Assembly (NCBI GenBank): GCA_000004695.1
Contig: CM000151.3
Location: 4,704,001-4,768,000, forward strand
DNA from: Dictyostelium discoideum
Taxonomy: Eukaryota
Reading direction: 5' to 3'
Length of the DNA stretch: 64,000 nt
Shown: positions 6,001 to 44,865 of the stretch, piece after piece
Position numbering within the stretch: the stretch's first letter is position 1
Layout of the letters: every line of letters starts with the position of its first letter
Notes under the pieces: generated by a model
Seen by the model: only the letters and a program-made list of their open reading frames with translations
What the model was told of the DNA's origin: nothing
The model's database searches: none
Translations under genes and position numbers: made by a program

Positions 6001-6497
6001 TTGTGCAATATAGATTGGTTCAATTACGAATGGTATTTCATTTACAAATGTGATTGCACCTGATAAATGATATAATACTTTAACATATTTAACTTGTTCC
6101 CATGGCATTGGTATATTCTCTAAAAGTTTTAAAATTGCATGTGGCATATATTTCAATGCTCCTAAATAAACACGTTTATCATCTCTAAACCTTCTATTTG
6201 ACATATCACCATGATCTTTTATAATCTTTCTTAAATGCTCTGGAGGCATATCCTCTTTTCTAATCTCTACAGCTCCAAATTTTCTTTTTTCACTATATTT
6301 TTTATTATTTAATTGAATCCATTTTTTTGCTATAATTTTTTTAATAAAAAAAACAAAAAAAATAAAAAAAAATTAGTAATTTTCCAATTAAAGAATTAAT
6401 AAAAAAAAAAAAATATAATAAAAATAAAAAATTTACCTTTTTCTTCTAAATGTTGTGATTCATTTGATTGATTAATATTACTATTAGTATCATCCAT
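1..6497 (-). CDS. prpf8: Pre-mRNA-processing-splicing factor 8 (Prp8), 5' part of the gene; the C-terminal part continues beyond position 1. Hand-built model: exons 6497..6437, 6329..5756, 5644..5202, 5097..1, with introns GTAAAT..TATAG, GTAAA..TTTAG and GTAAGT..AAAG.
   Basis: The reverse-strand translation is continuous from 5097 to 1 (~1700 aa). It contains hallmark Prp8 motifs: [145 protein letters not shown], the MPN/JAB region and more. It is collinear with human PRPF8 as I recall it. Splice phases check out (1, 2, 1). The N-terminal [20 protein letters not shown] exon splices to ...[32 protein letters not shown]. Confidence 0.95.
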
Positions 6498-6806
6498 TTA
6501 TTTTATATTAATAAATAAATAGAGTTTATTTAAATATTAAAAAAAAATAATTTGGTGATCCTCTGAAAAAGTGAATGAAAATGAAAAAAAAAAAAAAAAT
6601 TTAAAAAAAAAAAAATGTGAAAAAAAAAAGCATTCTTTTTCAATTGTCGAAATTTTTTAAAGCGCACAAATTTGGAGGCCCTATATATATTTTATTAAGT
6701 TTTTTTTTTTTTTTTTTTTTTTCCCTTAATCGTACAGTAATTGAATAATTTTATTCAAATGTTTTTTTTTTTTTTTTTTTTTTTTTCCTTTATTAGTGCG
6801 CGATAT

Positions 6807-7154
6807 TTAGATTGAAACTACAATTTTTATTGGACTTTTGATAGTTTTAACATATTCGATTTTATATCTTAATGATTCTGATTCCAAAGTAAGAACTTTA
6901 ACTTTATCATTTAAAATTTCAACCATTGTTTTACTACTGATACTATCAATTACATTATTTATAACTTTTAATTCATATTCATTTTGAGCCAATAAATTTT
7001 TCAAACCAACACTTTTCATAAACACAATTTGAGAGAATGAGAATGCAAATCCTGGTCTTATTTTAGTTGTTTTCAAATAACCTAAACAATTTACATATCT
7101 ATAATCATTTACATCTACATTTTGTTCAATTAAATCATTTAAATACTAATAATA

Positions 7155-7201
<47 letters not shown>

Positions 7202-7396
7202 AAAATTAAAATTAAAATTATGTATTATTATTATTATTAATAAAAATAAAAAAAAAAATTTTAATAAAATAAATACACAAAAATGATTGTAATAAATATC
7301 TCTTAAAAGGGTGATTTCAATTGAAACTTTTGAAGGAAAACTCTTTAAAACTTTTGGTGATAATGAAGAAGTATTATTATTTGAATTTGCTTTCAT
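6807..7396 (-). CDS. Small two-exon hypothetical protein (~150 aa), possibly roadblock/LC7-fold (LAMTOR3/MP1-like). Tentative exons 7396..7277 and 7145..6807.
   Basis: Exon 2 (LNDLIEQNVDVNDYRYVNCLGYLKTTKIRPGFAFSFSQIVFMKSVGLKNLLAQNEYELKVINNVIDSISSKTMVEILNDKVKVLTLESESLRY...) has coding-like composition inside a poly-A/T desert. The track's M at 7076 is a TTG. An upstream ATG exon (MKANSNNNTSSLSPKVLKSFPSKVSIEITLLRDIYYNHFC) can be joined in phase 0 via a weak GTATTT donor and a TTATTAG acceptor. The RPGF...S(F/L)...GLK pattern recalls LAMTOR3/MP1 (LRPGFLSTFALATDQGSKLGL), but this is a weak match from memory. Confidence 0.3.
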
Positions 7397-8813
7397 TTTT
7401 TTTTTTTTTTTTATAAACACTATTTTTATTGTTGTTGTTGTTGCTGTTGAAATGAATAAAAAAATAAAAAAAAAATCATTTTATAGATCTCCCTTTATGG
7501 AAATGGAAATTTTTGTTTTTTGTTTTGCCACTGACACTGACACCATATGGTTTTTTTATTTGGATTTTTTTTTTAATTTTTATTTTTATTTTTATTTCAA
7601 AAAAAAAAAAAATTTCAAAAAAATAAAAAAATGATTTGTCCCATAAAAAAGTGATCAAAACTTTATTTATATATCAAAATTTGTTTTAAATTTATTCTTT
7701 ACTGAAAGTCCTGCGTATCCCATTTGAGTACCATGTTGTTGTTTGTCATCATCAATATGCCCTCGACGCAGAGAGATTAAATGAACCTTTTTGCTATACT
7801 TATTTTCTCGAAATTCGTTGTTGATTTATAAGTGCGTCCTGGTTCTTACAACAATTAAATATTAAAATAATTTAAATGAAAAAAAAAAAAAAACATAAAT
7901 AATAAGTATTTATAGAGTTGGTGAAAAGTAATTTATGCGGAGCTGGTCCTTTTTTATTTTCTGTGCGACTTTCCTTATAAAAAAATCACCAAAAGCCTCA
8001 GTGACCTTGGTTGAGGGAGCAGTGTTTAAATAAAAAATAAAAGTAAAAAAAAAAAAAAAAGAGTTGACATGTGCCTCATAAAATTACTTTTCACCTAATG
8101 CTGAAATTTTTTTATCCAACCAACCATAATCTTGGTCAGACTTCGAATAAACAATCTTGGTTAGAAATATCAAAAAAAAATAAATAAATAAAAAAATAAA
8201 ATCGTAAAAGAAATTATATTTTTAAAATTATTTGTTTTTAATTTTTATTTATTAATTATTTATTAATTTTTAATTTTTTTTTTTTTTTTTTTTGATACTA
8301 TTTTTTTTTAAAAAAAAAAAAAAAAGATATTATTTCTTAACAGTTTTAAAAAATTAGGAATTTGTGTGAGCGGTTTGGGAAAAAAGCATAACACATCTCG
8401 GTGCTTTTAAGAAATTTAATATCTTTATTGGAAATTTTTTATTTTTATTTTTTTTTTTCACTAATCGATTGCAGATTTTTTGGGTTAAAATTTTACCGAT
8501 GGAATTTTATTTTTTTTTATTTTTTTTTTATTTTTTTTTTTATTTTTTTTTTTAATAATTCGACGCTTTTGATTTTTTAGTTTTCATCATACCCTCAACT
8601 GTGATCAACCTATGAATTTGGTCAGCGCTGATTTCTTAAAAAATAAAAAAAAAATAATAATAATCATAAAATCCAAAAAAAAAAAAAAAAAAAATCTAAC
8701 CAAATTTTTTTTTTTTTTTTTTTGGGAAATATAAATAGAACAATTTTTTTTTTTTTTTATTATTTTATTCATCACAATTAAATATAAATTTAAATATATA
8801 AATATAAATAAAA

Positions 8814-9944
8814 ATGTCAATTTCATGGGAAGGTAATAAAATATAATAATTTTTTTTTTTTTTTTTTTTTTCTCTTGAAATCAAATTTTTTTTTTTTTGT
8901 TTTCTTTTTGACTCTAGTTCTAATCCCTATAGCATATAATGCAGCACAAGGTAGACCAGCCGATTGGAGACCAAACCAACCAACTCAACCAACCCAACCA
9001 ACCTACCAACCACAAGTCCAACAACCAACTTACCAACCACAAGTTCAACAACAAGTTACTTATAATCAATTTGGTCAACCAGTTTATGGACAACAACCAA
9101 ATTATAATCAACAAGCATGGGGCTCATCTACCGGTGCTACACCATCAATTACTCAACATTCATACCCAAGTACAACACCAACACAAGCTGAACTTGACTC
9201 TCAATCAGCTGCAAGTGGTGCCGCAATAGTTAGTGGTCAATTAAATTTTGATAATTCATATGGTGAAGTAAAAACTGATATGAGATTCATAGTTACTTCA
9301 CATTCTAATCCATATGATTGCGCCATTACTTTTATGGTACCATATGATGAAGAGCCAAAGGAATTATCATATTTAGTTTATAGTAAGTATTTTTATTATT
9401 TTTTATTGATCTTAAATTTTCCTACTAAAATAATTTTTTTTTTTTTTTTTTTTTTTTTTAATAGATAATGATAGATCTAGGGTTTATACTTCAAGTGTAC
9501 AAGTTGGAACCATTCGTAGTAGAAACATATTCCATGGTAAAGATTCTCAAGATGCAAAGGTTAAATGGGAAATGATTACAATTCCACAATCAATTAACCA
9601 ACAATTTTCACCATACACCTTGGACACAAAAATTGAAATCAATTTAAAAAGAATTCCAACTGGTTCAATGATTTTAGGTAATATTGTTTCATACCCTGGT
9701 CCAACTGCTGTTATTGGTAGAATGTTAAATATTTCATTTAATCAACTTAAAGGAAAAAATCGTAAGTAAATAAATAAATAAAAAAAAAAAAAATAAAAAA
9801 AAAAAAAATTCTATTCTAATTTTTAATATTTTTATAGTTATTATCCAATGGAGTTCTCAAAATAAATATTTTTTCAATGGTGGTAATTATACAAGTACTT
9901 CATCATTATTACCACAAGGTGGTTTTGAAAACGCAGGATTTTAA
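8814..9944 (+). CDS. Hypothetical Q/P-rich protein with a C-terminal globular region; four-exon model 8814..8832, 8918..9382, 9465..9761, 9838..9944. The N-terminus is uncertain.
   Basis: Three GTAAGT-type donors (8833, 9383, 9762) and acceptors TCTAG/AATAG/TTATAG join the ORF-track pieces (8875.., 9572..) in consistent phase (1/1/1). Codon usage is Dictyostelium-like (caa, cca, ggt, aat). The body reads RPADWRPNQPTQPTQPTYQPQVQQPTYQPQVQQ...GQLNFDNSYGEVKTDMRFIVTSHSNPYDCAITFMVPYDEEPKELSYLVYNNDRSRVYTSSVQVGTIRSRNIFHGKDSQDAKVKWEMITIPQ...LIIQWSSQNKYFFNGGNYTSTSSLLPQGGFENAGF. The track's MKSNFFFF start is a TTG inside a poly-T tract; the nearest usable ATG is at 8814 (MSISWE). Confidence 0.55.
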
Positions 9945-10056: not shown

Positions 10057-12839
10057 TTAAACTAATTGATCAGCATATATTGATTTACTATCAAAATCAT
10101 CAATACTATTGATTGGTGAAATTGATGGTTGTAATCTTGATTGTGGTGGAGGTAATGGAGGTGATGACATTGAATCAATTGATGAATGTAATATATTATC
10201 ATTTGATTGATTTATTGAATTACCATTCTTTGATTTCTTTGTAGGTTTATTCTTTTTAAAATTTTTCTTTATTCTATTTTTTAATAAAATTCTTGAAGTT
10301 TTACTATACAATTTAAATTTAATATTTAATACTAATCCAACAACTAAAATTACACCTATTACAATTATTGCTATTACCCAACCATTCTTTTCAATAAAAC
10401 CTTTTTGAACATTTTTCGAAATTTTAGAATTATTATTTTCACCACCAATACTATTATTATTATAATTATTATTATTATTATTTGAAAATAATAAATCATG
10501 ATTATATATTGTTAATTCCTTTCCACCACTTTTACCATTAATTATTACATTTACAAATAATAATTTATCAATTATTAAATTTGTTTGTTGTTCAACTAAA
10601 CAAGTTATACATGATGAATTTATAAATGAAATATTTGAACAATTATAATATCCAATTGAAATATAATCAATTTGTTTATAAAATTCATTTCCTGTAATTA
10701 TTACTAAACCAGTTGATTTTGAAATTGTAGTATTTAAAACTAATGGTGGGTAAAATTTAATTGAGATATTTTCATGTTTATTATTAAATACAACTTCCAA
10801 ATATTGATCATTTGGGCCATTAATATTCATTTGGCAAGAAATTGTTGAGAAATTTATAAATGTACAATTATAATCTAAATTATTGGTAACACAATGAAGG
10901 TGAGAATTTTCAATTGTTTCTTTTACAAAGTTTTTACCAATAATTAAAATTGAGCCACCTGTTGAATTAAAAATTGGATTTGTTTGAAAATAGTCAACAC
11001 TTGGTGAGATATCAACTTTTAATGGTACTGTGAATTCATTACAAACTTCAAGTTTAAATTCACTAGATCCATACTCTGGTTTCAATGGGAATGAAATTAA
11101 TGAATTTGTAAATTTGATTGATATATTTGCAACATTATCAACAATTATTGAATTTGAAAAAATAATCTTAATTTTACCACTTTTATATAAATCAATAAAA
11201 TCTTGATATTGACCAACACATTCAATCATTTGATTATTTCCAATTGAACAATTATTAACAATTGGTAAATTGTAATTAAATTCTGAATGAATTGTATCAT
11301 TACCAATTGATATCAAAAATCCATTTCTACCACACCCTTTTGGAATTGTAAATGAATATGTATGTTTTGAGAAATCAGTAGAGTTTTTTAAATCAATACC
11401 AGTGATTTTACTATTATCAGATTGTAGTGTAATTATTGGTGTTGAATTATAATTTAATGGATTTATATTATAAAGTGTGAAATTTACAATTTGACCATTT
11501 ACAGATGGAGATGCTGGATTTTGTATCGAATAAAATGGAGAGGTTATTTCAGCAATGTTTGATTTTAAACCATTTACAACTACATTTATTTTTGATTTTG
11601 TTATTTGATTTGGTTTAAATAAAATTGAAGTTTGATTTTCATTAACAAGAATTTTTAAATTAGTTTGTTGAACATCATCAATAAATATTTGAGTAGTTTC
11701 ATTTGTACCAAAGAAATTACCAGATAGTTTCACTTCACCTTGTATAATTATTATGTTTGTTATAATAGGTTGATCAAATGAGAATAGTAATTTATTTTCA
11801 TTTGAAATTGAATTAATGGTTAATTTGATAGGTAAATTAACTGAATCACCATTATTAATAATAGGATCAATTCTACAAATTAATTGTTGATTTATAAATG
11901 TTACATTTTTACAATCATATGTACCAATTTTAACAAGTATAGTCGAATTGGCTAGCAATGATGGTGGTGGAGATAGTCTTGAACCTGTTATTGTTATTAG
12001 ACCACCATACTTTTTTGAAACACTATTGGCACTGTTTAAAATTGGTTTATAATCAAATGAAACATGATTGGATCCTAAGCCACCAGATATTATATGCAAT
12101 GATACTGATTTACTATATGGTTGGATGTATGCTATTTCAAAAATTTCATGATCAATTAGAGTTATATTAGATTTATCAATTTTGATACCCTCTATGAAAA
12201 TTGTTACATAATCTATAATGTTACAAAAGTTTGATCCATTTGCAATTATTTTAGTATCACTTGATGAAACACTTGAAATGTTTGGTTTTTGATGATTAAA
12301 TGTATAGTTGAAATTATTTGGCCAAGTGAATGTTCTAGGACCACAACCTCCTTTATAATCAAGAGTTAAGTTTGTAATATCAATTGTTGAAGATTCAAGA
12401 TCACCAATAATTGGCACCTTTGTTGAAGGAAGGATAGTAAATTTTGTAATACCAAAAACTAAATAATATCCTTGAATATTAACATAACCACCTTTAGTAG
12501 GTGGTTTAAATTCACCATCTATTATTGGTTGTGGATAATAATCTTTCCACAAAAATGAATTACATTCAGATGCTCCGTTTGTACTTGTAATACAATTTAA
12601 AATTTGACCTTTAAATTTCTTAACTATTGTTTCATTAACAGAACCAACACAAGTTCTAATAACTGTATTATTTGTACAAGAAAATGGTAAATCTACATCT
12701 GTAAATTCCCATTTTGAAAAATAATTACTATTTTTATCAAATATATAAGTTATTGAATCTTTTGTAAAATTTGATCCTTTTTATAAAAATAAAAAACTAA
12801 CATTATTAATTTTTTTGTTTATTTTTATTATTATTTTCC

Positions 12840-14569: not shown

Positions 14570-16100
<1,531 letters not shown>

Positions 16101-17819: not shown

Positions 17820-19270
<1,451 letters not shown>

Positions 19271-19515: not shown

Positions 19516-20640
19516 ATGGAATGTGGAGATGTTCAAGCTTTAGTAATCGATAATGGTTCTAGTATAAGTAAAGCCGGTTTTGCGGGTGATGATGCTCCAC
19601 GTGCTGTTTTCCCATCAATTGTTGGTCGTCAAAGATATAGGGATGTTATGGTTGGTATGGGTCAAAAGGATTCATATGTAGGTGATGAGGCTCAATCAAA
19701 AAGAGGTATCTTAAATCTCAAATATCCAATTGAACGTGGTATCATAACCAATTGGGATGATATGGAAAAGATCTGGCATCATACTTTCTACAATGAACTA
19801 CGTGTTGCACCAGAGGAGCATCCAATACATTTAACCCTATCTCCATCAAGTTCAAAAGCAAACAGAGAAAAGATGACTCAAATCATGTTTGAAACTTTCA
19901 GTAATCCAGCAATGTACATATCAATTCAATCAGCTTTATCATTATATGCATCTGGTCTTACCACTGGTATTGTCATTGATTCAGGTGATGGTGTTTCCCA
20001 CACTGTACCAATCCTTGAAGGTCATTCAATAAACCATGCTATCTCACGTTTGGATTTGGCTGGTAATGATCTCACTGATTATTTGGGTAAATTATTATCT
20101 GGACGTGGCTATCCATTCATATCAATTGACGAAACAGAAATAGTCAGAGATATCAAAGAAAAACTATCATATATCACATTAGATTTCCAAAATGAAATTA
20201 AAATTGTTTCATCAGCATTAGAGAAATCATATGAATTACCAGATGGTAAAGTGATTTCAATTGGTAATGAACTTTTTCGTTGTCCAGAAGCTCTCTTCCA
20301 ACCATCATTCTTAGGTATGGAATCAGCTGGTATTCACGAAACCACATACAATTCAATTATGAAATGTGATGTCGATATTCGTAAAGACCTATATGATAAT
20401 GTTGTATTATCAGGTGGTACAACTATGTTCCCAGGTATTGCTGATCGTATGAACAAAGAATTAACTGCATTAGCACCATCAACAATGAAAATCAAAATCA
20501 TTGCACCACCAGAACGTAAATACTCAGTTTGGATTGGTGGATCAATGTTATCATCGCTCTCAACTTTCCAACAAATGTGGATTTCCAAAGAAGAATATGA
20601 CGAATCTGGTCCATCAATTGTTCACAGAAAATGTTTCTAA
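19516..20640 (+). CDS. Divergent actin paralogue (374 aa) in tandem with the preceding actin; intact ORF but many substitutions at conserved positions. It is either a fast-evolving actin variant or a pseudogene with a retained ORF.
   Basis: [26 protein letters not shown]... differs from canonical actin in the first phosphate-binding loop (GSGMCK to GSSISK), has a 2-aa deletion ([15 protein letters not shown] to [14 protein letters not shown]) and carries many subdomain-4 changes. The last ~400 nt and the 3' UTR (20641..20700, tgatgaaattgtttctcaca) remain nearly identical to the neighbouring actin. Confidence 0.75.
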
Positions 20641-26778: not shown

Positions 26779-29700
26779 TTATTTACCCTTTAAAACTGAT
26801 GCAATTTCTCTTGTTCTATATTCTTTTGATGCTTGATAAGAAACAAAGATAGCGATACAAATTGACATAATGAGTACACCAATGAACCAAAAGTATGGGA
26901 ATTCAAAACTAAAAGGTAACTCTGTGAAAAGATCGAATTGAAGGGTAAGAGTTAGGGCGATACCTAAACCAATTGAAAGACCAAGTATCATTGAAGAAAA
27001 GATTAAAACCAATGCTTCATAGATATAGATACGAGTAACTTGAAAACTTGTTAAACCAATTGAACGTAAAACACCAAATTCCCAAGAGTTTTCATGAATA
27101 TTTGCACTGAATGAAACCCATAGCATAAAGAAACACAAAACAATGGAAGCCACTGAAACTGTGTAAAAGAAGATATTTAAAATTGTGACGGCAGTCTCTG
27201 TTGTGTCCAAAAGATGTTGAGTATCCATAACTTGAATATTATCAGTTTTAATGAAATTTCTAACACCATTGATGACGTACTCTCTTTCAATTTCAGAGGT
27301 ACCTTGTTTTAATTTAATGAGTACTTTTGATTTTGGAGCAACACTTGGTAAAACAACCGATGGATCGTTGGTAACAGAGTAAACCATCTGCATAATTCTA
27401 TAGAATTCATCATCATTGACCAAAATGGGAGAACCATAGGAAGTTTGAGAATAAGTTGAGAAAAAGAATGATGGGAACATTCTAACCATTGATTGACCTT
27501 TTGCTAACAATGTAATATGATTCACTGCGTTACTATATTGTTTATACTCTATATCCAAATTGAATGGTGAATCTGTATCTACACCACAAGTCAATCTAAA
27601 TGCTTCACTGAAAATGATATCTGTATAATTTTGATAGATGTAAGTGTTGTTCAAATGATTCTTTAACCATTTCCAAACTGGACTATTTGTAGGATATTGT
27701 TGACTACCATTTGATACAATGTTTGGTGGTGGAGTGATTACACCATTGAAATCCTCTGAAATGATATCACGATGTTCATTAACATATAAACTATTGATAA
27801 CATCGGGTATCTTCTTACCAGCACCATTATCTATGGTTGGGAAAGTTATTGTTTTGGACATTTCAGTTACTTCATAGAAATCTAAATAAGCACTTGAAAG
27901 GAAATTACTTTCGACACCATACATTCTAACATTTACCGATGGATATTCAGCCAATGGCATTAAATGAGTGGATCTAATATTCATAACTTTATCCAATGGG
28001 AATGTGATAACGGTATAATCGCTAATGACAGAGTTGGTATTGTTTGCTATATCATTATCCAAGAAAGCTCTAATATCAGCCTCTGGAATTGGATTCTTAA
28101 TACTTGTGGCCAATACGGAAATATCAGAACCAATACCTAAACGTACCAACTCTTGAATGTTATGACCCTGTAAACGGAATACACAACCTGTGAAAATGAT
28201 AAATGTTAAACTAATGGTTAACATTGTGGCAGTCTTTGAATTTCTAGTACTATGAGAGAAAAGATTCTTTCTAACCAATTGATAAAGTGATCTTCTATCG
28301 GGACCAACAATTAATGTGAAAATGACGGCTTTCTCTAATAATGGTTGAACTGCTTGTGCCAACATTGACATACCAAATAACATACCCATTAGAATACCAG
28401 TGAGAATACCAAAGAAAAGTCCCATATTTCTAAATGTAAATGATAGCGGTATTAAATAATAGACGGTGAAACCAACAGCCACAGCCAACAATGCCAACAA
28501 TGTTTGAAGTACATCTAAACCAACTTCTTCTAGTTTTTCGATTTTAACCAATGTTTCATTCTTTACTTGATGATAAACATCGAGTGCATCACGTAGTGTA
28601 CGTGATAAAGCACGTTGAATTGGTGCGATATTTGCAACGATTGGCATAAGAAAACCCATGAGCAAACCTGATACAATACTTGTGGTATGATATGTTAAAT
28701 CGATTGGTAATAATACAAATTGAACATAGACAAAGTAGGCAACGATTGCATAAAGGCACCAACCAATGAATAGACCAAAAACAATACCAGGAATACTGAA
28801 ATAGAGTGATTGAGTCAAGAGCAATAGAATCAAAGCATATTGACGCATACCTTGAGCACGTAACATACCATATTCAAATGTTTTACCTTCAACATCACTT
28901 AAAAGCAAACTATAGACCATTAATGCACCCAATACCAATAAGACTGCAGCGACACAATTGAAAATCTGATTCAATGATAACTTTGTATAAATGAACAATT
29001 GAAGTGTTGTTGCTAATGGAGTTGTGAAAGAAACTGGATAACTTATACCCAATAAAGTGGAGACTTGATTTGTGAATGCCATCATACCCTTGACCATATC
29101 TTCATTGGAGGAGGTGTAAACCTTTACACGATTCTCTAGCATTATCACTGGTGTCATTGAAAAATCATTTAATTTGAATGATTTTCTAAACGATTCAAAT
29201 TTATCTACGAATCTATTATATTGACCAATGTAATCGGTAACATTTGATAAACCAAACTCTTGTGCTTCAACCTCTAAGAATGTTAAAAAATCCTTATAGT
29301 CTTTACTTGTGATTTGATTATTAAATTGCTCCAATTTCTCCTTTATCAATGTTTCCAAATATGATGATTCCAATATACCAACATTACCAATTGTATTTGG
29401 ATATTTACCACCTGGCTCATCGATTGAACCCATAACCACCAAATCGTGATCAATTGATAAATCCGATCGAATTGAATTATAAAACTCTCTCAATGCAACC
29501 AATGGATAGAATGTCATTGTACCACTTTTCGAATCGATAACGAATCCTTTTGGACCAAACAAATCACTTAGGGTATCTTCAATATGAGTTCCAGGGTTCA
29601 TTAGGTCATAAGTTTCAATCAAATCGGTAACATCCATTTCTTTGGGTATTTTGAATCCAATTTGTAATTGAATAGAGTCAACTAAACTTTCAAAACTTGG

Positions 29701-30994
29701 AAAAGTAGCTGGCAATCCTAAACGTTGTAAAATATCAATGAAATCCATATGTAAATGTACCACTTGATTATTCATTGCTTTAACATTAATTCTTCTTAAA
29801 AATGGTGCACTAATATGAATTTGATTACCAACCAATGGTGGTAATGTCCAACCTCTTCCCAATCCTAATTCTTTTTCCAATGTTGAATTAATTGACATAA
29901 TTAATAATGTTGCACCATTTTTATTAATATTATTATTATTATTATCATCGTCAGAACTATCACTTGATGATAAACTACCACTTGATGATAAACTACTACT
30001 AGTGGTTGATGTTGTGTTTGAGGTTGTAATTGCAGCAATTGAAATCCAACGTGGAGCAACACCATGAACAGTTAAGGCATCAGCTAATTTTTGAGTTAAA
30101 TAAGTTGAATTTACAAAATAACCTGAATAATCCATTGTTAAAAATGATAATTGATCACTGATACCACCCAAAAAACCATTGAATAAATAGAATGGACTCT
30201 TTGATAATCTCTCTTCAACCAAACCTTGTTGTTTAATTAATTCCAATGCTTTTTTAATTCTCGTTGAAGTACTTGATTTACTTGTTTTATCTAAATATTG
30301 ATCCTCTTCTGAATCTGTATTTACAACTGTTAAACTTTGACTTTGATTACTTGAAACATAATTACCAGGATCACCAATCAATACTAAATCTAACTCTCCT
30401 GCTTGATCCTCTGATAATTTTAAAAATACAATTGGTGATGATTGAATTAAATTTTGTAAAAAACTAAAAAAAAAAAAAAAAGTAAAAAAAATAAAAAAAT
30501 AAAAATTAAAAACTTTTATATTAATATATAAAAATAAATTATAATAATTTAAATTATTTAAAACTTACCTTATAAATAATACAACTAAAAATACTGTAAA
30601 TAAACCTAATAATAAACTTTTTCGATTCTTTTTTGAGTTATTGTGAACATATTTTACAGCCACTCTAAGATCACCATACAAAGTATATCTTAATGAGAAA
30701 TAAATATAATAAATGAAACCTTTTACAGTGTTTAAATCAAAAACACCACTCGATAAAGGATTATCATTATCGTTGTTATTGTTGTATATATTTTTATAAT
30801 TATTGTTACTACTGCTACTACTACCAATGTTATTGCTATTATTTAAACTATATGTGTCGAATGTTCTATTTGATTTTAAAAATGGTGAATTTGTGTGTGG
30901 TGTAGAATGTGATGTTACACTATTTAATATGCTACCGCCACCATTACCACTACCACTACCACTACCACCATCATACTCGTTATCGCTATCGTAA

Positions 30995-31029
<35 letters not shown>

Positions 31030-31212
31030 GTTATTATTTTTATTATTATTATCTATATCTAATCTTTCATATCTTTTAGTATGTCTATTTGAATTTAAAT
31101 TGTTATTATATATTCGGTTATTTCTATTTGTATTTGGTGTATTTGAACTTGTATTACTACTTTCACTCTCATCTTCATATAGCAGATGATGGTGATTAGA
31201 TGAAATATTCAT
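26779..31212 (-). CDS. Large membrane protein (~1442 aa) with two FtsX/MacB-type permease domains and an N-terminal low-complexity region; exons 31212..30569 and 30463..26779.
   Basis: Exon 1 (MNISSNHHHLLYEDESE...poly-N...KSLLLGLFTVFLVVLFI) ends at an ATAAG|GTAAGT donor in phase 2. The acceptor TTTTTAG at 30464 restores the frame (..S FLQNLIQSSPIVFLKLSEDQAGELDLVLIGDPGNY...). There are two copies of the FtsX signature (GKTFEYGMLRAQGMRQYALILLLLTQSLYF... and ENSWEFGVLRSIGLTSFQVTRIYIYEALVLIFSSMILGLSIGL...). Each is followed by TM helices and preceded by a large extracytoplasmic domain, the MacB-like topology. Confidence 0.7.
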
Positions 31213-31488
31213 ATCACTTAATTCAACTAAAGGTTCCTTTTGAATTTTATTTTCTCTTTCAGTGTTTGAATTCCTTTAAAAAAAAAAAAAAAAAATTAGA
31301 ATAAAGGTAATAGCACAAAAAAAAAAAAAAAAGGAATTTTTTTTTTTTTAATTTTTAATGTTAATTGAATAAATAAATAAAAATAAAAAAACAAAAATAA
31401 ATTAATATATAAATTAATATATAAATTAATGTATTAATTAATTAAAAACAAAAACAATTTTAAAAAATTAACGAAAATAATAAGTGAG

Positions 31489-33490: not shown

Positions 33491-34615
33491 ATGAAGGGTT
33501 CAATATTCTTACTCTTTATTTTCCAAATATTTAAATTTTCATCAAGTTATTCACATTATCCACATAAAAACCAGTTTTCATTTTATTCACCTACAAGTTT
33601 ATCATTTACATCTTCAAATTTCTCAAGTGGTAGTGGTAGTGGTAGTGGTGGTGCTAGTGGTAGTGGTGGTGGTGGTAATATTGGTAATAAATACAATAAT
33701 GAAAATAACAAAATTAATGAAGAGATTATTATTTCATGTATATATGATGACTATTTAAATTTTCAATACCAAGATTTAAGTAAGATCAATGGTATTTTAA
33801 TTAATGGTTTCAATAAAAATAGTACGAGTGATATATTTGTTAAAAATGTAAACTCTCAATATTATGATCAAAGTGATAGTAGCAATAATTTTCATTATTT
33901 TGATCAAGAGAATAATAATTTATCTCCACAATCTCAATTAAATAAGGAATGTCCATTCAATTTAAAGAATCCAATTCCAACATTTTCAAATTCAAGATAT
34001 TCAATCAAAATTGATAAATCATTTGATGTTTCTGATGAAATCACTTTAGTTTCAAAAAATAATTTCTTAAATTCAAATTCTGTAAGTTGTTTTCATTTTT
34101 ATAAAATTTTAAAAATATAATCTTCAATATTAATTTTTTTTTTTTTTTTTTTTTTTTAAAAAAGATTTCAAAATTAAAATTTAAAGTTTATATTCCAAAT
34201 AAAATTACCAATAAAATTAAAATACAACTTATAAATAGTTTAACTGGAAATAATGGTCCTAAAATACCATTGTTAAACACAATTGAAAATAATTATTTAA
34301 AACCATTCCCATGCCATCAATGGTTAGATGCATTTATTTTATTTAACGAAACCAATTATTATAATAATAATAATAATAATAATTATCCAATTTTTTACAA
34401 TGGTCTTAAAATTACAAGTAGTAATAGATCCCTTGATAACACTTGGATTGACGAAGTTTATATTGATGAAATTAAATTAATTTCAAACAATAATAAACAC
34501 AATAGTAATAAAAATGATAGAAAAAGAAATATTGATCAAACCAATGAAATTTATGATAAAATAAATATCAATAATAATAATTATAATATTAGAAAATTAT
34601 TTAGTATCTTAGATG

Positions 34616-34673
<58 letters not shown>

Positions 34674-35297
34674 AATTATTAATAGTTATAATACAATTAA
34701 TTCAAGGGCTGATATTGCATTAGGTGGTAATAGTGATGATCAAAGTGACATTTCATACTCTATCATTTGTAATAAACATATGAATGAATTGAATAATGAA
34801 ATCAAATGGAGATTTGAAGAAGGATCATCTAGTAGTTTAGTTGAAACAGCTAATGGGAATTTAATATTGGAAGGTTCAATTCATAGTATTTCAAAACATC
34901 AAGCTGATTATAATTTTAATTGTAAAACCAATTGGAAAATTAGAATTGAATTTTCACCAATTATCGATGATTATCAATATAATGGCAGAATGGAATTGGC
35001 ATCATTTGCATATACTAAAAATGGTGGTCCAATTGATACACTTTATTGGAAATATTATAAATTTGTAAATGGTTATTTAAGTGGTTTAGATTGTAATCAA
35101 GGTAAATTAATTCAAATTAATAATAATAATAATCATAATGAAAATAATAATGGAATTTTACAAATTGGTATTGGCGCAAATAATAAAAATGGTAGATTTG
35201 GTTTATCAGTATATGGATTACAGTTATCAATTGATAATGACAATACTTTTAATATTAATGTTGATTTAAATAACCAAAATAACCATTTATCTAATAA

Positions 35298-35328
<31 letters not shown>

Positions 35329-38300
35329 AATGAAGTTTTAGAATGTAATTGTCCAATTGGATTTATTTGTTTAAATGATGGAACATGTAAATTAAATTTT
35401 CAAAATGATGTTGATGAAGAATATATAGATTGTTCAACATTACAATGTCCATCAGGGTATGAATGTAAACTTGATAAGAATTCAAAGACTAGAGGATGTA
35501 TTGAACAGATTGGCCCACAAAATCTTAATCAAACTAATAAATGTTTGGGTAATTTAAAGTGTCCAGATGGATTTGGTTGCTGGCATAATTCAACTGATAA
35601 TACTTTAAATTGTAAACAATATAATAATCATAAATTTGATACAAATGTCATCGATAGTGAAAAACATAGACATCATTGTAGAAATGTTGATTGTCCAAAG
35701 AGTCATTACTGTAAAATTCAAAGAAATGGTTTACCAAGATGTTTCCCAAAAGTTAACCCATGTGAATTTGTAAGTTGTGATTGTAATCTAGAGTGTAGAG
35801 TAACATCATGTGGTGATGCTAAATGTTTTGCACCAGAGGAATGTTGTGAAGGTAAAGCTTGTATGGACACTAGAAATTATAGATGCGTAAAGATTAATGG
35901 CGTTGATGAATGTGTTAGAATCCCACCTTTGAAACCATTACCACCCCCACCCATTTTCTATGAAACACCATCACCAACATCTGCACCACCCACTGAAACA
36001 CCATCGCCAACTGACACACCAACTGATAAACCAACTATACCACCAACACCAACACCAACACCATCCAAAGAAATTACAGATTGTAGTCAAGTAATTTGTC
36101 AAGTTAATTATACATGTTTTGATATACAAAAAGGTGTTGGACCATTTACGCCAGTTTGTATACCCATTAATTATTGTGACGAGTATACCACTAGATTCGA
36201 TTTACAAGGTTATGTTTGGTTGGATGACAATGAAAATGGCTATAGAGATGTCAATGAAAATGGTGTTGAAACTGAACCAATTGGCGTAGAGGGTATCTTT
36301 TGTAATTTGGTATTCAGTACCGATCATTCACCCGCAAGAAATCATTATGGTGATATCATACCAGTATCAGTTACAAATTTGGATGGTTTCTTTAGTTTCA
36401 ATGATGTTGTACCAGGTTCTTATGTTATCGATTTCTATAATATCAAAGGTTATCATTGGACTCTACCATTCAATAGATACTTTAAGAATAGTAATTGGGT
36501 TAATAGTGATGGTACTTCTTTACCATTTGAATTACCACAATATAATGTTTCAAATCCAAATTTCATAATTTCACCACAATCCAATTTAATTTCAAAATCT
36601 ATAACTCTACCACAACCAATATTTTCAACTAATGCTATAGTCACTGTTAATAATGATGGTTTCGATGAGTTAGGTAGCAGTGGCAGTGGTAGTAGTGGTA
36701 ATAGTGGTAGTAGTGGTAGTGGTGGTAGTAGTAATGATAGCACAGAATCTCAATGGTCATCAGAATCAGAATCATCAGCATCTCTAATTACACCATCAAA
36801 TATCTGTCAAACTCATTTCACTGTTTCAAATATACTTGCTGGTCTTATTGTTGGTCCACAACCAACTCCATCCACTGATATACCAACAACAACAACAACA
36901 ACAACCTCTACATCAACAACAGGTCCAATTGAACCAACATCAACACCAACGCCAATAGTTGATGTTATTGATTATTATGGTATTGGTAAACAGGTATTCA
37001 TCGATTTCAATAATAATGGTATATTTGATAGTGGTATTGATAGACCAGTATCGGGTGTTGAAATTACATTAATTCAAAAAGGTTTCAGAGCATACAATCA
37101 TAAGGGTGATAAAGTACCAACAATAAAAACCGATACCAATGGTTTTTACTTTTTCGATGCTCTTGCACCTGGTGTATATAGAGTTTCATTGAATAATTTA
37201 CCACCACATGGTTATACCAATTCATTGTTAAACAAATATCCAATTGATACAAGTTCAAATACAAGTGCTCAATTCATAGTTTATTATCGTGTGAAAGATA
37301 ATATAAAATATAATGCTTCCGATTATCCATTGGCATCAAGTAATATTAAACCAAAGCTTGCACAATATATTAATTCATATGTCGATTTTGCTTTAGTACC
37401 TATTAATCCACCGATTGCAGTTGGTGATACCGTTTACTTTGATTCAAATCAAAATGGTAAACAAGATCCATTTGAAAAAGGTATCAAAGGTATTCAAGTC
37501 ACTCTAAAAGATTTAAAGAATGGTTATGAATATAAAACCATCACAGATGATAATGGTAAATATTTATTCGATCAAATGATTGAAAGTGATAATTATCAAT
37601 TACAATTCTCTGTACCAAATGGATTCCAAGTTGTCGATCATCCAAATTCAATAAAGAATGGAGTTTACACAATGGATACATTTCAATTATCTTCAAGTAC
37701 CACTCCACCAACTAATGCTTCATTAACAAAGGGTGTAGTTGGTAACAAGAAAGTTAATTCCGCTTATTTCGACGATTCAAAAGATGTACCATTGTATTTC
37801 GAAAATTCTTATGCAATTGGCCATCAAGCTTTTATCGATACAAATTTAGATGGATTGTATAAAAATGACCTTGATAAACCATTACCTGGCGTTGAAGTTA
37901 CTTTGGTTAATGCCGCTTCACCATCAACTCCAATTACAAATATCTTAGGTCAAATTGTTAGAACTGTTATCACTGATGCAAAGGGTTTTTATCAATTTGA
38001 TTTCTTAAAGCCAAATAACTACATTGTTCAATTTAAACCACCCACTGGGTTCAAAGTTACAAAGCCACCACCAAACACTGCAACCTATCCAGAATTAGGT
38101 TCATTAATAGATACAAAATCATTTAAAACACCATCATTAGATATTGTTACCTTATCGAAACCAAAGAATATAGAATACATTCGTCTTAATGTTCAAGCTT
38201 CAAATATTTTCGAAAGTGTAAATGCAGGTTTCTATATTCCACCAACATTTTCAATTGGTCATAGAGTTTGGTATGATACAAATGCTGATGGTATTATGGA

Positions 38301-41300
38301 TCCAACTGAAGAGGGTGTACCTGGTATTGTAGTTTCACTATATACTGATAAGAGTGAACCCGCTTATGATATCAATGATAATCTCATCATTCCAACGATA
38401 ACAGACTCTAAAGGTTTTTATTTATTAACCAAAATTCCAACAGGTAATTACTTCATTTCATTTAGTAATCTACCAAAAGGTTACACTTGGACCAAACAAA
38501 ATGTTCTCACACTTGATTCAGTTGGTTATGATTCACGTCCAAATGTTTTCACAGGATATACCTCTTTGTTTGAAATGTCAACAACAAGTCAATTGGTTAG
38601 AACTACTGTTCCTTCTGACAACTCACCAGATTTCTATATAAATCCAATCGAAAATGCTGGTATCATCAAGGGTAATAGAGGTCTGGTTATTAAATACGCA
38701 GTTGGTAGATACATATTTTATGACGATAATAGAAATGGAATTTTAGATGATTATGAAAACGGTGTTGGAGGTGTCATTGTTCAAATATTCACTTCAGCTG
38801 GTAAACCTGCTCTTGATTTTAATGGCAAGGTTATTCCACCCGCTGTAACCGATTCAACAGGTCGTTATATCATTGATAATTTATCACAAGGCGATTATAT
38901 CATTCAATTTTCAAATATTCCAAATGGTTATAACTTTGAAAATTTACCACCACCTTATCCAAATTATCTCAATGGTAGAATTGGTACATTTACTCTTTCG
39001 CCATCATCCTCTATCAATACAACAAATGTTATTAAAAAATTCAATCCTCCAAAACCTAATGGAGGTAAAAAAGTTTCATTCAGTCATAGTATCAATCAAA
39101 AATCTAGGAAATTATTAAATGATGGAATAATTGGACAAGACACATCTGTTGATTTATCAAATGTTATAGCTGGAGGTAGTACTGTCGATGGTGTTGACAT
39201 TCCAAATGTTATAGCTGGTGGTAGTACTGTCGATGGTGGTACTAGTGTTAATGGTGGTACTGGTAGTACTTCAACAACAACAGTTTCATCATCACCATCA
39301 TCATCATCTGATATTGGTAGTAGTAGTGATATCAGTAGTGAAGTATCATCATCGTTATCATCATCGCCATCATCATCAGAACAACCATCAGAGCAATCAT
39401 CATCATCATCAGAACAACCACCAGAAGATTCAATGGAAGAATATCCAGTTCATTATTATGAACCTGTATTTGAGACAACACCAGGTAGTTATCCATTGGA
39501 TAGTATTAAAGCAGAAAGAACAGATTTAACAAGAAATGCAGCAATTGTAAGAGCAGCACCATATGCATTTGGTCAAAAAGTATTTTTCATTGATAATAAT
39601 GGCAATGAAGTTGGTGTACCAGATGTAACGGTAACATTAGTTAATTCAAATGGTTTCCCAGTGACAAGTATTAATGGTGTAAATATGGTACCAACAAAGA
39701 CAGATTCAAAGGGTTCATACCGTTTCAATTTATTACGTGCTGGTTCTTATCATGTTGAATTTTCAAATATTCCAATTGGTTTTTCATTCTTTGACCCATT
39801 ATCAGGTAAAATCGATTTCAATCTTGTAAACACTGATCCAAATGTACGTGGTGCAATACCAGCCGATAAAGTACCAAAAGCAACCTATTATGATCAACAT
39901 GTTAATCTTCAATTGAATCCACCATTTATCTTTGCAATTGGTACCCGTGTTTGGAATGATACAAATAAGAATGGTCTCTATGAAATTGCTGAACCTGTTT
40001 TCCCAAATATTACAGTTAGACTATTTGATCAAAATTTACAACCAGTACTAGATAATTTTAACATTCAAGTGGAGCCAACTGTAACCAATGCATTGGGTCA
40101 ATATTATTTCGATAATTTACATAGTGGTTCATATATTGTCAAATTCGAAGTACCAACTCGTTATTATTTCGCACCACAATTGAAATCAATTGAAAATTCC
40201 AATGGAGTTGGTGTCAATTCAAAACCAAATAGTCAAGGTTATACAAGTGTTATTTCACTCTCACCAGATTCATTGGTTGAAGCTCCACCATCAGATTTTA
40301 ATTTCACCATTAGATCTTTAGTAGGTAATTTCCATATTGATGCTGGTTTAATTTATGATGAAAATTATGTCAAGTCATATGCGGTTGGTAGATATGTATT
40401 CTATGATCTCAATGATAATGGTATTATGGATAGTGGTGAAATGGGTGTACCAAATGTTACCGTTGAAATATTTAATCCAACTGGTCAACAAGTTTACAAT
40501 ATCAATGAATTACTAATTGGATCAACAACCACAGATTCCAATGGTTATTACCTTTTCGATGAAATTCAACCTGGTAGTTATATCATAAAGTTTAGTAATA
40601 TACCAAATGATTTAATGTTTGGAAATAAAACAAAACCAAATTCAAATACTGGCCTAACTGAACCATTCTTATTATTCCCAAAAGAACCTGCTATCAGACT
40701 TGTAAATAGTACCACTGATGTTGGTGTAAAAGCTCAAGCAGTCGATTTCACAGAGAATGCAGGTTTAATTAAAAAGGTAACATTTGCGATTGGTCATTAT
40801 GTTTGGTATGATATAAATTCAAATGGTCTTCAAGATTATCCAAATGAACCGCCAGCATATGGAGTTCCACTTAGATTACTTAAATGCAATTTGATTGGTA
40901 TAACTTATGATACTTGTTTCACAGTGATAAATACAACTACAACCGATCAAAATGGTCTTTACTATTTTGATAATTTATCACCCGGTTTATATAAACTATT
41001 ATTTATGAATCAACAAGGCATTTTCGAAACTACAACTCCTTTCGCTGGTAATGGTACAAATGATAGTAAAGCAATCGATGAAGCTATCACTGGAATTAGA
41101 TTATCAATATATACAAAGAATGTAACGAAAACAGATTCAAATCTTGACCCAATGATAAAGGCACCCTTCATTGATAGAACATTGAATGTTGGTATTCTAA
41201 AACCACCAATGTTTAGTATTGGTCATAAAGTTTGGTATGATACCAATAAAAATGGTAAAATCGATCTAAAAGAACAACCAGCACCAAATGTAACCATTTA

Positions 41301-44300
41301 TCTCAAACGTGCAAAAGAGGTCAACTTTGAATATTCCTTTGATCTCTATGGTAAACCTATGATCGCTAAAACAAATGAAACAGGTGATTATTGGATCAAT
41401 AATATTCCACCAGGTCTTTACATTGCAAAATTCTTTCCACCAAATGATACAAGATTCACCATTCAAATGAATGATAATAGTGCAAATGTTTTCGGTTCTT
41501 CATATGCAATCTATTTGTTCTATAAAGTTCCAGGTATTCATCCATACAATTTAAAAGTTGATATTGGTGCGGTGAATGCAAGTTATGTTTACTCAAAAGT
41601 TAATGCAGGTTTATTAAAAGGTTTAGTTGATATTCGTCTTTATGCAGTTAGTGGTTATGTTTACAACGATACCAATTCCAATGGTATTAGAGATCCCGGT
41701 GAAAATGGTGTTAATGGTACAATTGTAACATTATTGGATATAAATGGTAATACAATGGTTGATGCTGATTCTTATCCAATTAATTCATATACAACGGGTC
41801 CTGATGGATACTATAAATTCGATGATTTCTCATTTGGTAAATATATTATAACATTTAGCGGTGTACCAGATTTAATCTATCAATTCTATAAACCAGATGA
41901 TCAACAACATTTAAATCATTCCACACTTTCAAATATAACAATTTGGTCACCAGATAATCCAATGGTTGTAAATGCAACACTCAGTGATCATGTCAACGCT
42001 CAATATATTCTTAGAGAACAAAATAAAGGTATTATTAGAGTGATCACTTATGCAATTGGAGGTAAGGTTATACCAGATTTTAAAAACACAACATATAAGG
42101 ATAGTGGTTACGCGGGTGGTGCTGTTATAGTTCAATTATACCGTAACAATTCAATAGCAACAGATCTTCGTGGTAATCCAATACCATCGGTATTGACCAA
42201 TGTATTGACTGGTGAATATCTTTTCGATAATGTACCAATCTTAGAGGGTTATCAAGTAATGTTTTCAAGTCCACCACCAGGTTGGATTTTTGAAAAGTAT
42301 AGAATCACTCAAACCCCATTCATTCAACTTGATCTTTTACCATCATTCAATTTACCAAAATCAAATCCAAAATTAATAGATAAGAAACTTTATCCAAATA
42401 TCTTTGCAACCTATGGTGTATTGGATCAAGATACTATTATCTCACCCACTCTTTTTGGAATTGGTAAGAATACATTCATTGATGTTGAAAATAGTGGTCT
42501 CGAATCAATACCTTTAATTCCATTAGGGGGTGTAGTTGTAACACTTTACAATAGTGTATTCGAAAGAGTATTTGATGCATTTGGTAATTTGGTTAAAGAG
42601 AAAACCACGGGTGAAGATGGTGAATATTCTTTTGAAGACCTTTACTCTGGTCAATATATTGTTCATTTTGGTTTAGTTGAAGGTTATTCATTCACTCAAC
42701 AGTATGCTGGAACAGATCCTGAAATTGATTCGAATGCAAGTCCTGTAGATGGTTATTCAGAAATCATTCAATTAGATTCAATGAATAATGAATTGATTTT
42801 AATACCATTGGAATCTAGAAACAACACATTATTCTGTGATCCAACAATTGATGGTGGTTATGTTTCACTCTCACCTCAAGGTTTCATTAGTGGTATGACA
42901 TATATTGATTATAATGCTGATGGTGTATTCACACCAAATTCACGTGATAAACCATATCCAAATATTACGGTTTCAATCTACACTGGTGATGATAGTAGAT
43001 TAGTTGCAACCGCTCAAACTGATAAGAAAGGTTTTTACTCATTCTCACATTTATTCATATCCACTCAATATCAAGTTGTTTTCTCAGGTATTCCTCAAGG
43101 TTATTATACATCATTCCAAGCTGATACTGTACAATTCCCAATCGCAACAAAGACTGGTGTAAATTTAGGTATCATTAAACCATTGGAATATTGTCAAGAT
43201 GATATTAAAATAATTACAACTTGTTTTGTTCGTGGTGATTCAAATGATGATTTACCAGCTGTCGTTCAATTCCCTTATACTGCTTATTCCGATTTGAATG
43301 GTGATAATGGACAAAAAGTTGATCTAGTAACAATGAGTGAAACTAAAACAGTTTATGGTCTTGGATATGATCGTAAAGAGAATACAATCTATCTTTCGCC
43401 ATATAAAAAGCAATTTTCTAGTTTAAATTCAAAAACTTCATCAACTATCTTTAAGAAATCATTATCAACAGGTGCCCTATCAGCTTATGTAAATTTAGCA
43501 ACAGTTTTAGGTTTTGACTTTTTAGCTCCAAATGGTAAAGTTTATGGTGATTCTCAAACCTATCGTGTATTATTTGGTGATTTGGATATTATTGGTGATT
43601 ATATTTGGGTTACAAATCTTTATAGAAACATTGTAGTTAAAATACCATTACGTCAAACTCCAACTAGAGAAAACATTAAATTAGTAAACATCACTCATAA
43701 TTGTGGTCCAGATCCATTTAGAATCTTTGGTTTAGGTTATAATGGTTCCAATGTATTCGTTGGTGGTGTTTGTGAAGGTTCAGTTTCGAAGGATATAAGA
43801 AATGTAATTGGTGTAATTAAAGTGATTAGCTCTGATGAAACTTCATTCTCTGATGTTTTAACAATTCCAATGAATTATCCACGTGGTCGTTTACAAACTA
43901 GAATCATGTTTTTAAATGATATGACACCCATTTTCTCATCGGTTCAAAATTCAACATGGCAAGTTTGGAATGATACAGTGGGTAGTTTTAAACCTCAACC
44001 ACAGATAACCGATATTACATTCATTGGCGATGGTGGTAATATGGTAATATCAATGAAAGATCGTGAAGCTGATAGTCAAAGTGTTACGCCTGCAGGTGAT
44101 ATATTAATGGCATGTAAAGATTCAAATGGTGTTTATCAATTGGAGAGTGCTGGTGTTTGTGGTGGGTTAATTGGTACAAATCCAATTTCAATTGGTACAA
44201 TGATTGAACAAGGACCAGGTGGTGGTGAATTTTTCGATGACAATTTTAGTGATCGTGATTGGCAACATGATGAAACCACTTGGGGTTCTTCATATTATTT

Positions 44301-44865
44301 ACCAGGTAGTGGTGAAGTCATTGGTGGAGCATACGATCTTTTATCAACCAATGAAGCAATTGTAAAACATTGGTCAGTCTATAATGGTCGTGTTTTATAT
44401 GGTTTCATTTTAATTCATGGTGCTGGTTTAGATTATGTTTTCAATAAAGTTAATGGTTTAGGTGATATGGATGCAAATTGTAGATTACCAAATACTTATA
44501 TTGGCAATTACGTTTGGTATGATCTAAATAAAAATGGTCTTCAAGATCCAAATGAAAAAGGAATGGCAAATATTACTGTTCAATTATTTAGTGCCGCTAA
44601 TTCAACATTCATTAATTCAACTCTAACCGATTCCTCTGGTAATTACAATTTCCAAGTCATTTCAGAGTTTAAATATAGAGTTCATTTCGTTGCTCCAAAA
44701 GGTTTCACTTATTCTCCTATCGTTACTGTTAGTAGTGATCCTAATGATAAAAGAGATTTGGAAAAAATCAATAGTTTACCTGATTCAAAAGGTGACGCAT
44801 ATTTCTTTGCTAATGGTAATGGTGAAAATACTCAAGATATTGATTGTGGTTTTATAAGAATTTAA
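33491..44865 (+). CDS. Giant secreted/cell-surface protein (~3763 aa), colossin-like. It has a signal peptide, a Cys-rich EGF-like region, a Pro/Thr linker and ~16 tandem SdrD-B/CnaB-type domains. Exons 33491..34081 and 34165..44865.
   Basis: Exon 1 (MKGSIFLLFIFQIFKFSSS...) ends at a TCT|GTAAGT donor in phase 0. The acceptor AAAAAG at 34163 joins in frame to the 3531-aa ORF. The repeating unit is ~110 aa: IGxxVWxDxNxNGxxDxxExGVxGVxVxL...(T/S)DxxGxYxFxxLxxGxYxVxFxxPxGY (e.g. IGHRVWYDTNADGIMDPTEEGVPGIVVSLY, VGRYVFYDLNDNGIMDSGEMGVPNVTVEIF, IGNYVWYDLNKNGLQDPNEKGMANITVQLF). This is the SdrD B-like fold common in bacterial adhesins, and Dictyostelium colossins are built from it (established knowledge). 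Confidence 0.8.

Follow-up and report, generated by a model that had tools for sequence, protein, structure and literature searches.

A 64,000-nucleotide stretch of the Dictyostelium discoideum genome (GenBank assembly GCA_000004695.1, contig CM000151.3, positions 4,704,001 to 4,768,000; hereafter the window) carries, on the minus strand at positions 26779-31212, a gene for a protein with two FtsX-type permease units. Our analyses show that its product is a YbbP-type permease, one chain forming a pseudo-dimer of the Type VII (MacB/FtsX) fold, with ten transmembrane helices (TMH; individual segments are numbered TM1-TM10). Each unit consists of an amphipathic helix, a first transmembrane helix, a large exoplasmic domain and three further transmembrane helices (TM2-4 in the first unit). 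The two units are joined by two linker helices, and both termini and both TM2-3-type loops are on the cytoplasmic side. The features of the gene and its product are as follows, in window coordinates; pLDDT is the predicted local distance difference test score, and the homologue model is described below.

30569..31212, minus strand: coding exon 1, residues 1-214 and two bases of codon 215, with the start ATG at 31212.
30464..30568, minus strand: spliceosomal intron of 105 nt, GTAAGT...poly-T...TAG, AT-rich, splitting the Ser215 codon within TM1.
26779..30463, minus strand: coding exon 2, residues 215-1442 and the stop codon.
30727..31212, minus strand: cytoplasmic N-terminal low-complexity tail (residues 1-162; Asn, Ser and Gly runs), with no alignment consensus and pLDDT <50 in the homologue model.
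30628..30726, minus strand: conserved amphipathic helix before TM1 (residues 163-195, ...SLRYTLYGDLRVAVKYVHNNSKK), from alignments and the homologue model.
30400..30624, intron included, minus strand: TM1 with its stalk extension (residues 197-236, a 40-residue helix), from hydropathy and the mapped homologue model.
28993..30399, minus strand: exoplasmic domain 1 (residues 237-705), an alpha/beta core with a long helical hairpin insertion at residues 581-643 in the homologue model.
28600..28956, minus strand: FtsX domain 1 (residues 718-836; TM2-TM4), 48.8 bits and E=8.6e-13 when scanned alone, aligning with TM2-TM4 of MacB.
28840..28899, minus strand: TM2-TM3 cytoplasmic loop with predicted coupling helix 1 (residues 737-756, SDVEGKTFEYGMLRAQGMRQ), near-invariant in dictyostelids and in the metagenomic homologue P0014.
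28312..28512, minus strand: linker hairpin TM5-TM6 (residues 866-932) connecting the two permease units, from hydropathy and the homologue model.
28132..28296, minus strand: amphipathic helix before TM7 (RRSLYQLVRKNLFS) and TM7 with its stalk (residues 938-992), from hydropathy and the homologue model.
27223..28131, minus strand: exoplasmic domain 2 (residues 993-1295), rich in beta-alpha-beta elements in the homologue model.
26806..27162, minus strand: FtsX domain 2 (residues 1316-1434; TM8-TM10), 69.4 bits and E=3.7e-19 when scanned alone.
27058..27087, minus strand: predicted coupling helix 2 (residues 1341-1350, SWEFGVLRSI), which the homologue model shows as a separate short helix in the loop between TM8 and TM9.

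The interval contains two open reading frames (ORFs), 30565..31212 and 26779..30381, both on the minus strand. Joining 31212..30569 to 30463..26779 preserves the frame and gives a coding sequence of 4329 nt and 1442 amino acids with a single terminal stop, so splicing across the 105-nt GT..AG intron reproduces exactly the two-exon gene that had been proposed in a sequence-only reading of this DNA. An in-frame TAA at 31278..31276 closes the reading frame upstream of the ATG at 31212, which is therefore the earliest possible start within exon 1. The splice junction falls inside the hydrophobic TM1 helix SLLLGLFTVFLVVLFISFLQNLIQ, and the intron is validated because every orthologue conserves the TM1 sequence that splicing restores. 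The protein is 97% identical to that of D. cf. discoideum and 92% identical to that of D. citrinum. The annotated orthologues of D. cf. discoideum, D. citrinum, D. dimigraforme and D. firmibasis (P0018, P0001-P0003) align only from residue 22-24 and are thus ~21-23 residues longer at the N-terminus than the window protein; either these models include an extra upstream exon or they use a different start. The GC content of the gene and its GC content at third codon positions (GC3) are within the range of the neighbouring host genes. An artefactual fusion of two genes in the gene model was ruled out, as the single-chain architecture is found in dozens of independent genomes and transcriptomes.

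FtsX (PF02687) was the sole Pfam family in the whole protein, matching over two stretches (E=1.5e-26, 93.2 bits). The presence of two FtsX copies, as the sequence-only reading had claimed, holds for each copy by itself, since both exceed the Pfam FtsX gathering cut-off of 25.5 bits when scanned alone. The two motifs quoted in that reading, EYGMLRAQGMRQ and EFGVLRSIGLTSFQV, both occur in the protein, within the cytoplasmic loops between TM2 and TM3 and between TM8 and TM9. Identity between the permease halves is only ~19%, and the duplication is therefore ancient. Hydropathy analysis gave ten hydrophobic segments in a 1 + 3 + 2 + 1 + 3 layout. Clusters of 5-7 Lys/Arg residues each were found in the segment before TM1, the segment after TM4, the TM6-7 loop and the C-terminus, and the TM3-4 and TM9-10 loops contain zero Lys/Arg. 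This distribution places the termini and both quoted motifs in the cytoplasm, and residues ~237-705 and ~993-1295 on the exoplasmic side. N-glycosylation sequons were non-diagnostic for topology: N850, predicted to be cytoplasmic, is as conserved as the exoplasmic sequons. Hydropathy, the Lys/Arg bias and the homologue model thus back the earlier claim that a large extracytoplasmic domain lies ahead of each FtsX unit, and the topology check yielded 4-TM units with a positive-inside bias and, in the P0016 homologue model mapped onto the window protein, 40-46-residue helices for TM1, TM2, TM7 and TM8 that include stalk extensions. The description of the N-terminal 215 residues as low-complexity stands for residues 1-162 and fails for residues 163-221, which comprise the conserved amphipathic helix and most of TM1. 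MacB likewise has a helix preceding TM1, at the same position as the helix of residues 163-195 (PMC5985334).

The exoplasmic domains have diverged at the sequence level. The MacB_PCD profile search (PF12704) that had been proposed as a check gave no match at E<=1 in the whole protein, in the isolated exoplasmic domains or in 15 homologues, and likeness to MacB in these domains is confined to the fold. Exoplasmic domains 1 and 2, scanned in isolation, matched no Pfam family. Among NCBIfam models there were weak generic matches only (DevC, MacB, ADOP), far under the cut-offs, with 16.4 bits against a cut-off of 966 for MacB and 15.7 bits against 622.3 for ADOP (TIGR03434). The best-conserved 20-residue blocks in 39 eukaryotic homologues were the TM8-9 loop (0.86), the TM2-3 loop (0.80) and the helix after TM4 (0.77). 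Within coupling helix 2, the residues L1077, R1078 and G1081 (P0016 numbering) are invariant, prokaryotes included.

The fold was analyzed using P0016, a complete Acytostelium subglobosum homologue of 1172 amino acids with 50% identity to the window protein. AlphaFold with a 15-sequence alignment of close relatives gave a model of pLDDT 50, which was not used for fold searches; with a 50-sequence alignment of eukaryotes and prokaryotes, the P0016 model reached pLDDT 82.3 and a predicted template modelling score (pTM) of 0.74. The top match of this model in a Foldseek search against the PDB was E. coli YbbP (9ge6_A; E=3e-17, 1140 aligned columns, TM-score 0.60 on the target), and BceB, MacB, LolE/LolC, HrtB and YtrF ranked lower. 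Isolated periplasmic domains of LolE, LolC, MacB and YknZ also matched the model, these matches not being assigned to exoplasmic domain 1 or 2. From these fold matches we infer that the exoplasmic domains retain the MacB-type fold, though MacB_PCD is undetectable in them by sequence.

The family was then traced in a full scan of 1.84 billion representative proteins with the 1200-aa exon-2 protein as the query. The scan returned 4091 matches at E<=1e-3 and 514 representative clusters at E<=1e-30. The best 150 matches all had E values below 1e-73 at 26-66% identity and were mostly ~1000-1800 amino acids long, the shorter ones being probably partial. Homologues were also searched with a profile of the C-terminal half, since full-protein word-indexed searches gave almost only dictyostelids, a result probably due to low-complexity words. 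Carriers in the Amoebozoa include all dictyostelid groups, Physarum, Mastigella, Vermistella, Balamuthia and Flabellula. The family was also found in CRuMs (Rigifila), a centrohelid (Pterocystis), Discoba (Naegleria gruberi, N. fowleri and Andalucia), a ciliate (Ichthyophthirius), chytrid fungi (Geranomyces, Borealophlyctis and Phlyctochytrium) and a blastoclad (Sorochytrium); among the named matches, there were apparently no animal or plant entries. A match from Hodarchaeum (Asgard) was placed near the base in a rough neighbour-joining tree, which is indicative only.

The sequence-only reading had suggested a horizontal origin, and a recent transfer of a bacterial MacB/YknZ-type permease into dictyostelids would fit the overwhelmingly prokaryotic distribution of FtsX-fold permeases and the fact that the nearest non-eukaryotic matches are bacterial and archaeal duplicated permeases. 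The nameable clusters among the 514, however, come from Amoebozoa, fungi, Discoba, ciliates, CRuMs and centrohelids. With the C-terminal-half profile, full-length eukaryotic members scored E<=1e-94, whereas the best prokaryote scored 2.7e-13. In the neighbour-joining tree, all eukaryotes fall into one clade, within which the tree recovers Dictyostelia with Physarum, the chytrids, Discoba and the ciliate group. The gene also has a spliceosomal intron and host-like GC and GC3. On this evidence, a recent bacterial transfer was rejected as extremely improbable: the family is old in eukaryotes and is neither a dictyostelid oddity nor a recent bacterial acquisition.

When the two best-conserved motifs were scanned in 185,579 prokaryotic genomes, only three loci (L009, L010 and L011) were found. 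Two of them are full-length members of the eukaryotic clade with 27-28% identity: L010, at 6001-9198 of CAZYYU010000111.1 from an 'uncultured Gammaproteobacteria' metagenome-assembled genome (MAG), and L009, at 98-3706 of DDIL01000114.1 from the 'Glaciecola sp. UBA1851' MAG (E=4e-38 and 6e-116, respectively). Because the L010 gene is broken into several ORFs, as by introns, its contig is probably eukaryotic and mis-binned. In L009, a single ORF of 1202 amino acids takes up a 4-kb contig, which by itself does not distinguish a bacterial from a eukaryotic origin. The L011 match covers just 61 residues at a contig end. P0014 (L001, 995-5569), a protein of 1524 amino acids and the most divergent of the homologues found initially, is encoded on a Joint Genome Institute (JGI) metagenome contig that also carries SUI1, cyclin and LRR genes. 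It carries an extra insertion of ~350 residues in exoplasmic domain 2 (residues ~1000-1400), so the size of the exoplasmic domains varies across the family. A. subglobosum has two permease paralogues on separate contigs, P0010 (56% identical to the window protein) and P0016, and one copy was seen in each Dictyostelium species.

Several other genes were observed in the window. Converging with the 3' end of the permease gene is a cytochrome P450 ORF (25511-26554, plus strand). Its match to the P450 profile is restricted to the C-terminal two thirds (best stretch, positions 172-393 of 462), which makes further P450 exons upstream likely. A giant ORF of 3531 amino acids (34270-44865, plus strand), ~3 kb from the permease gene, contains ~15 SdrD_B, CarboxypepD_reg and prealbumin-like repeats (Pfam E=1.5e-219) and presumably resembles the Dictyostelium Cna-B-repeat 'colossin' proteins. 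The order of P450, permease and giant repeat protein is kept in D. citrinum, where a 3719-aa gene occupies the position corresponding to the giant ORF. An 831-aa ORF of the Tgr family (10057-12552, minus strand) has TgrO1-like immunoglobulin-like domains (PF24612, E=3.6e-32), and such a gene is also near the orthologous D. citrinum locus. Two actin genes of 376 amino acids (14776-15906, minus strand, and 18018-19148, plus strand) are arranged head-to-head as an inverted pair within a ~1.4-kb inverted duplication of 97% identity; their nucleotide sequences are 99.8% and their proteins 100% identical. A third, divergent actin (19516-20640, plus strand; 83% amino acid identity) lies directly downstream of the pair.

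The sequence-only reading had noted the lack of an ATPase domain, and this was confirmed by Pfam, which gave no ABC_tran (ABC, ATP-binding cassette) match in the permease protein. The MacB-dimer-like fusion of two permeases into one chain is likewise borne out and corresponds to the known YbbP-type architecture (PMC5985334, PMC12646458). According to a review of the MacB family, fused two-permease forms always have their ATPase as a separate protein (PMC5985334), and the missing ATPase domain, which had seemed puzzling in the sequence-only reading, is expected and no anomaly because such forms use a separately encoded ATPase (PMC5985334, PMC12646458). The prokaryotic relatives P0200 and P0201 each have a 250-aa ABC_tran gene overlapping or abutting upstream, and these ATPases score best against the LolD, MacB, YbbA and DarD models. 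In D. discoideum, the ABC classes without transmembrane domains include AbcH (PMC3743828), and Tetrahymena too has ATPase-only ABCH genes (PMC2984421). The AbcH proteins are therefore named here as the putative candidate ATPase class in Dictyostelium.

From the architecture we infer by homology the likely mechanism, and we favor, as the probable reading, a YbbP-type Eukaryotic ABC3 permease that performs ATP-driven mechanotransmission with a trans-encoded ATPase. Two copies of a soluble, separately encoded ABC ATPase of the LolD/YbbA/MacB type would dock on both conserved coupling helices, with the ATPase-only AbcH proteins as candidates for this partner in Dictyostelium. ATP binding would zip the long stalk helices together and thereby move the exoplasmic domains. 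At the plasma membrane or in an endocytic compartment, a hydrophobic or membrane-anchored molecule may by this motion be extracted or expelled from the exoplasmic leaflet. An exoplasmic partner may then receive the cargo, by analogy with LolCDE-LolA and YbbAP-TesA.

Several observations weigh against this ATP-driven reading or speak for an alternative in which the ATPase was lost and the FtsX/MacB scaffold is used without ATP, for instance as a receptor, a sensor, a scaffold for exoplasmic enzymes or a passive lipid handler. No partner ATPase was found in the window, either in the large ORFs or by tblastn with an ABC ATPase query, nor beside the permease gene in any of five contigs from other eukaryotes (D. 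citrinum, A. subglobosum, Balamuthia and two uncultured eukaryotes). The six longest homologues contain FtsX only, with no fused ATPase or other domain, so that none of the eukaryotic loci examined has a fused or adjacent ATPase. The eukaryotic exoplasmic domains are also much larger than the bacterial ones and have diverged past MacB_PCD detection. Conservation of the coupling loops is general to FtsX domains and could be structural, and the three-dimensional model was built for the homologue P0016 rather than for the window protein. A duplicated permease family of bacteria, ADOP, has its own NCBIfam model; to our knowledge, these duplicated FtsX permeases occur without associated ATPases, a possible precedent for orphan use. 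Nevertheless, the non-adjacency of an ATPase is uninformative because eukaryotic genes lack an operon arrangement. The cytoplasmic coupling-helix loops are the best-conserved parts of the protein across supergroups, and together with the well-conserved helix after TM4 they are consistent with a retained cytoplasmic partner; the C-terminal helices after TM4 and TM10 are both kept. In addition, all experimentally characterised relatives are ATP-driven. We therefore regard an orphan permease as unlikely.

A defensive variant would share the architecture and the ATPase dependence and differ in purpose: instead of handling endogenous lipids, the protein would act like BceAB or MacB and detect or clear membrane-active antimicrobials or toxins that an amoeba feeding on bacteria encounters. 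In its favor, the top fold matches include BceB and MacB, phagotrophic protists account for many of the carriers, and the JGI automatic name of homologues is 'ABC-type antimicrobial peptide transport system permease subunit'. However, these automatic names are labels from COG and not tested functions, BceB has one extracellular domain as against two here and in YbbP, and osmotrophic fungi, chytrid and blastoclad, carry the family as well. A dedicated defensive role thus appears doubtful, slightly more so than loss of the ATPase, and the YbbP-type ATP-driven permease is the reading carried forward.

The family itself is already catalogued in Pfam, in UniProt automatic names and in TCDB as E-ABC3, and finding it is no discovery. 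TCDB family 3.A.1.207, 'Eukaryotic ABC3 (E-ABC3)', has reported Asgard homologues (PMC7997004). The Dictyostelium permease falls under 3.A.1.207 by the family definition rather than by a listed accession, being the product of an intron-containing eukaryotic gene with FtsX domains. No study of the function or structure of the eukaryotic FtsX/ABC3 family emerged from our literature search. What is new here is that the fold is assigned to the YbbP architecture and that the family extends broadly across eukaryotes; the lack of an ATPase is, in addition, accounted for as expected, and the AbcH proteins are put forward as a concrete putative candidate class. Type VII ABC transporters (MacB, LolCDE, FtsEX, BceAB, YbbAP) are portrayed in reviews and structural papers as bacterial cell-envelope machines, and a YbbP-like version is widespread in eukaryotes, including the genetically tractable Dictyostelium. 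We give even chances to the broader view that Type VII ABC machines working by mechanotransmission have here their first eukaryotic example, one that may date back to the last eukaryotic common ancestor, is perhaps Asgard-derived and has been kept in many protists and early-diverging fungi. In such a case, it would pair with an unrecognised soluble ATPase or, as the more radical option, with none, and its cargo would be lipids or lipid-anchored molecules pulled out of the exoplasmic leaflet.

Compared with known systems, the nearest prokaryotic sequence relatives found are P0200 and P0201 (820-854 amino acids), which, as MacB_PCD-FtsX-MacB_PCD-FtsX proteins, share the duplicated architecture. 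Their similarity is limited to the FtsX domains (E ~1e-13; 13-17% identity to P0016), and they differ in that their exoplasmic domains are detectable as MacB_PCD and their ATPase is encoded in their own operon. BceB and PsdB, permeases of antimicrobial-peptide sensing and resistance, have ten TMH and two linker helices, are strong fold matches and have a separately encoded ATPase; the single extracellular domain of BceB lies between TM7 and TM8. MacB (of MacAB-TolC) and LolCDE share the FtsX-fold 4-TMH unit, the Porter/Sabre-type exoplasmic fold and the TM2-TM3 coupling helix with the Dictyostelium permease, and presumably the mechanotransmission principle. MacB, however, carries its ATPase fused N-terminally and works as a homodimer, and LolC and LolE are separate chains, whereas the Dictyostelium units are fused in one chain.

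The closest counterpart is E. coli YbbP (YbbAP-TesA; PDB 9GE6/9GE7/9GE8). YbbP has ten TMH, is pseudo-symmetric through an ancient duplication with TM5-6 as the link, and has coupling helices between TM2-3 and TM8-9, one YbbP binding two YbbA ATPases; the proposed role of YbbAP is pulling hydrophobic molecules out of the membrane for the hydrolase TesA (PMC12646458). The two proteins differ in sequence and size. Identity is ~10-11% in structural alignments, and YbbP was recovered neither by phmmer nor by a sequence profile at E<=0.01. YbbP has 804 amino acids against 1442 in the Dictyostelium permease, which has far larger exoplasmic domains and, in addition, the helical hairpin insertion and a 160-aa low-complexity tail. 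Both combine in one chain two MacB-type units, two linker TMHs, two stalk-borne exoplasmic domains and the TM2-3 and TM8-9 coupling helices, with no fused ATPase, and YbbP is the best whole-chain structural match of the permease, as represented by the P0016 model.

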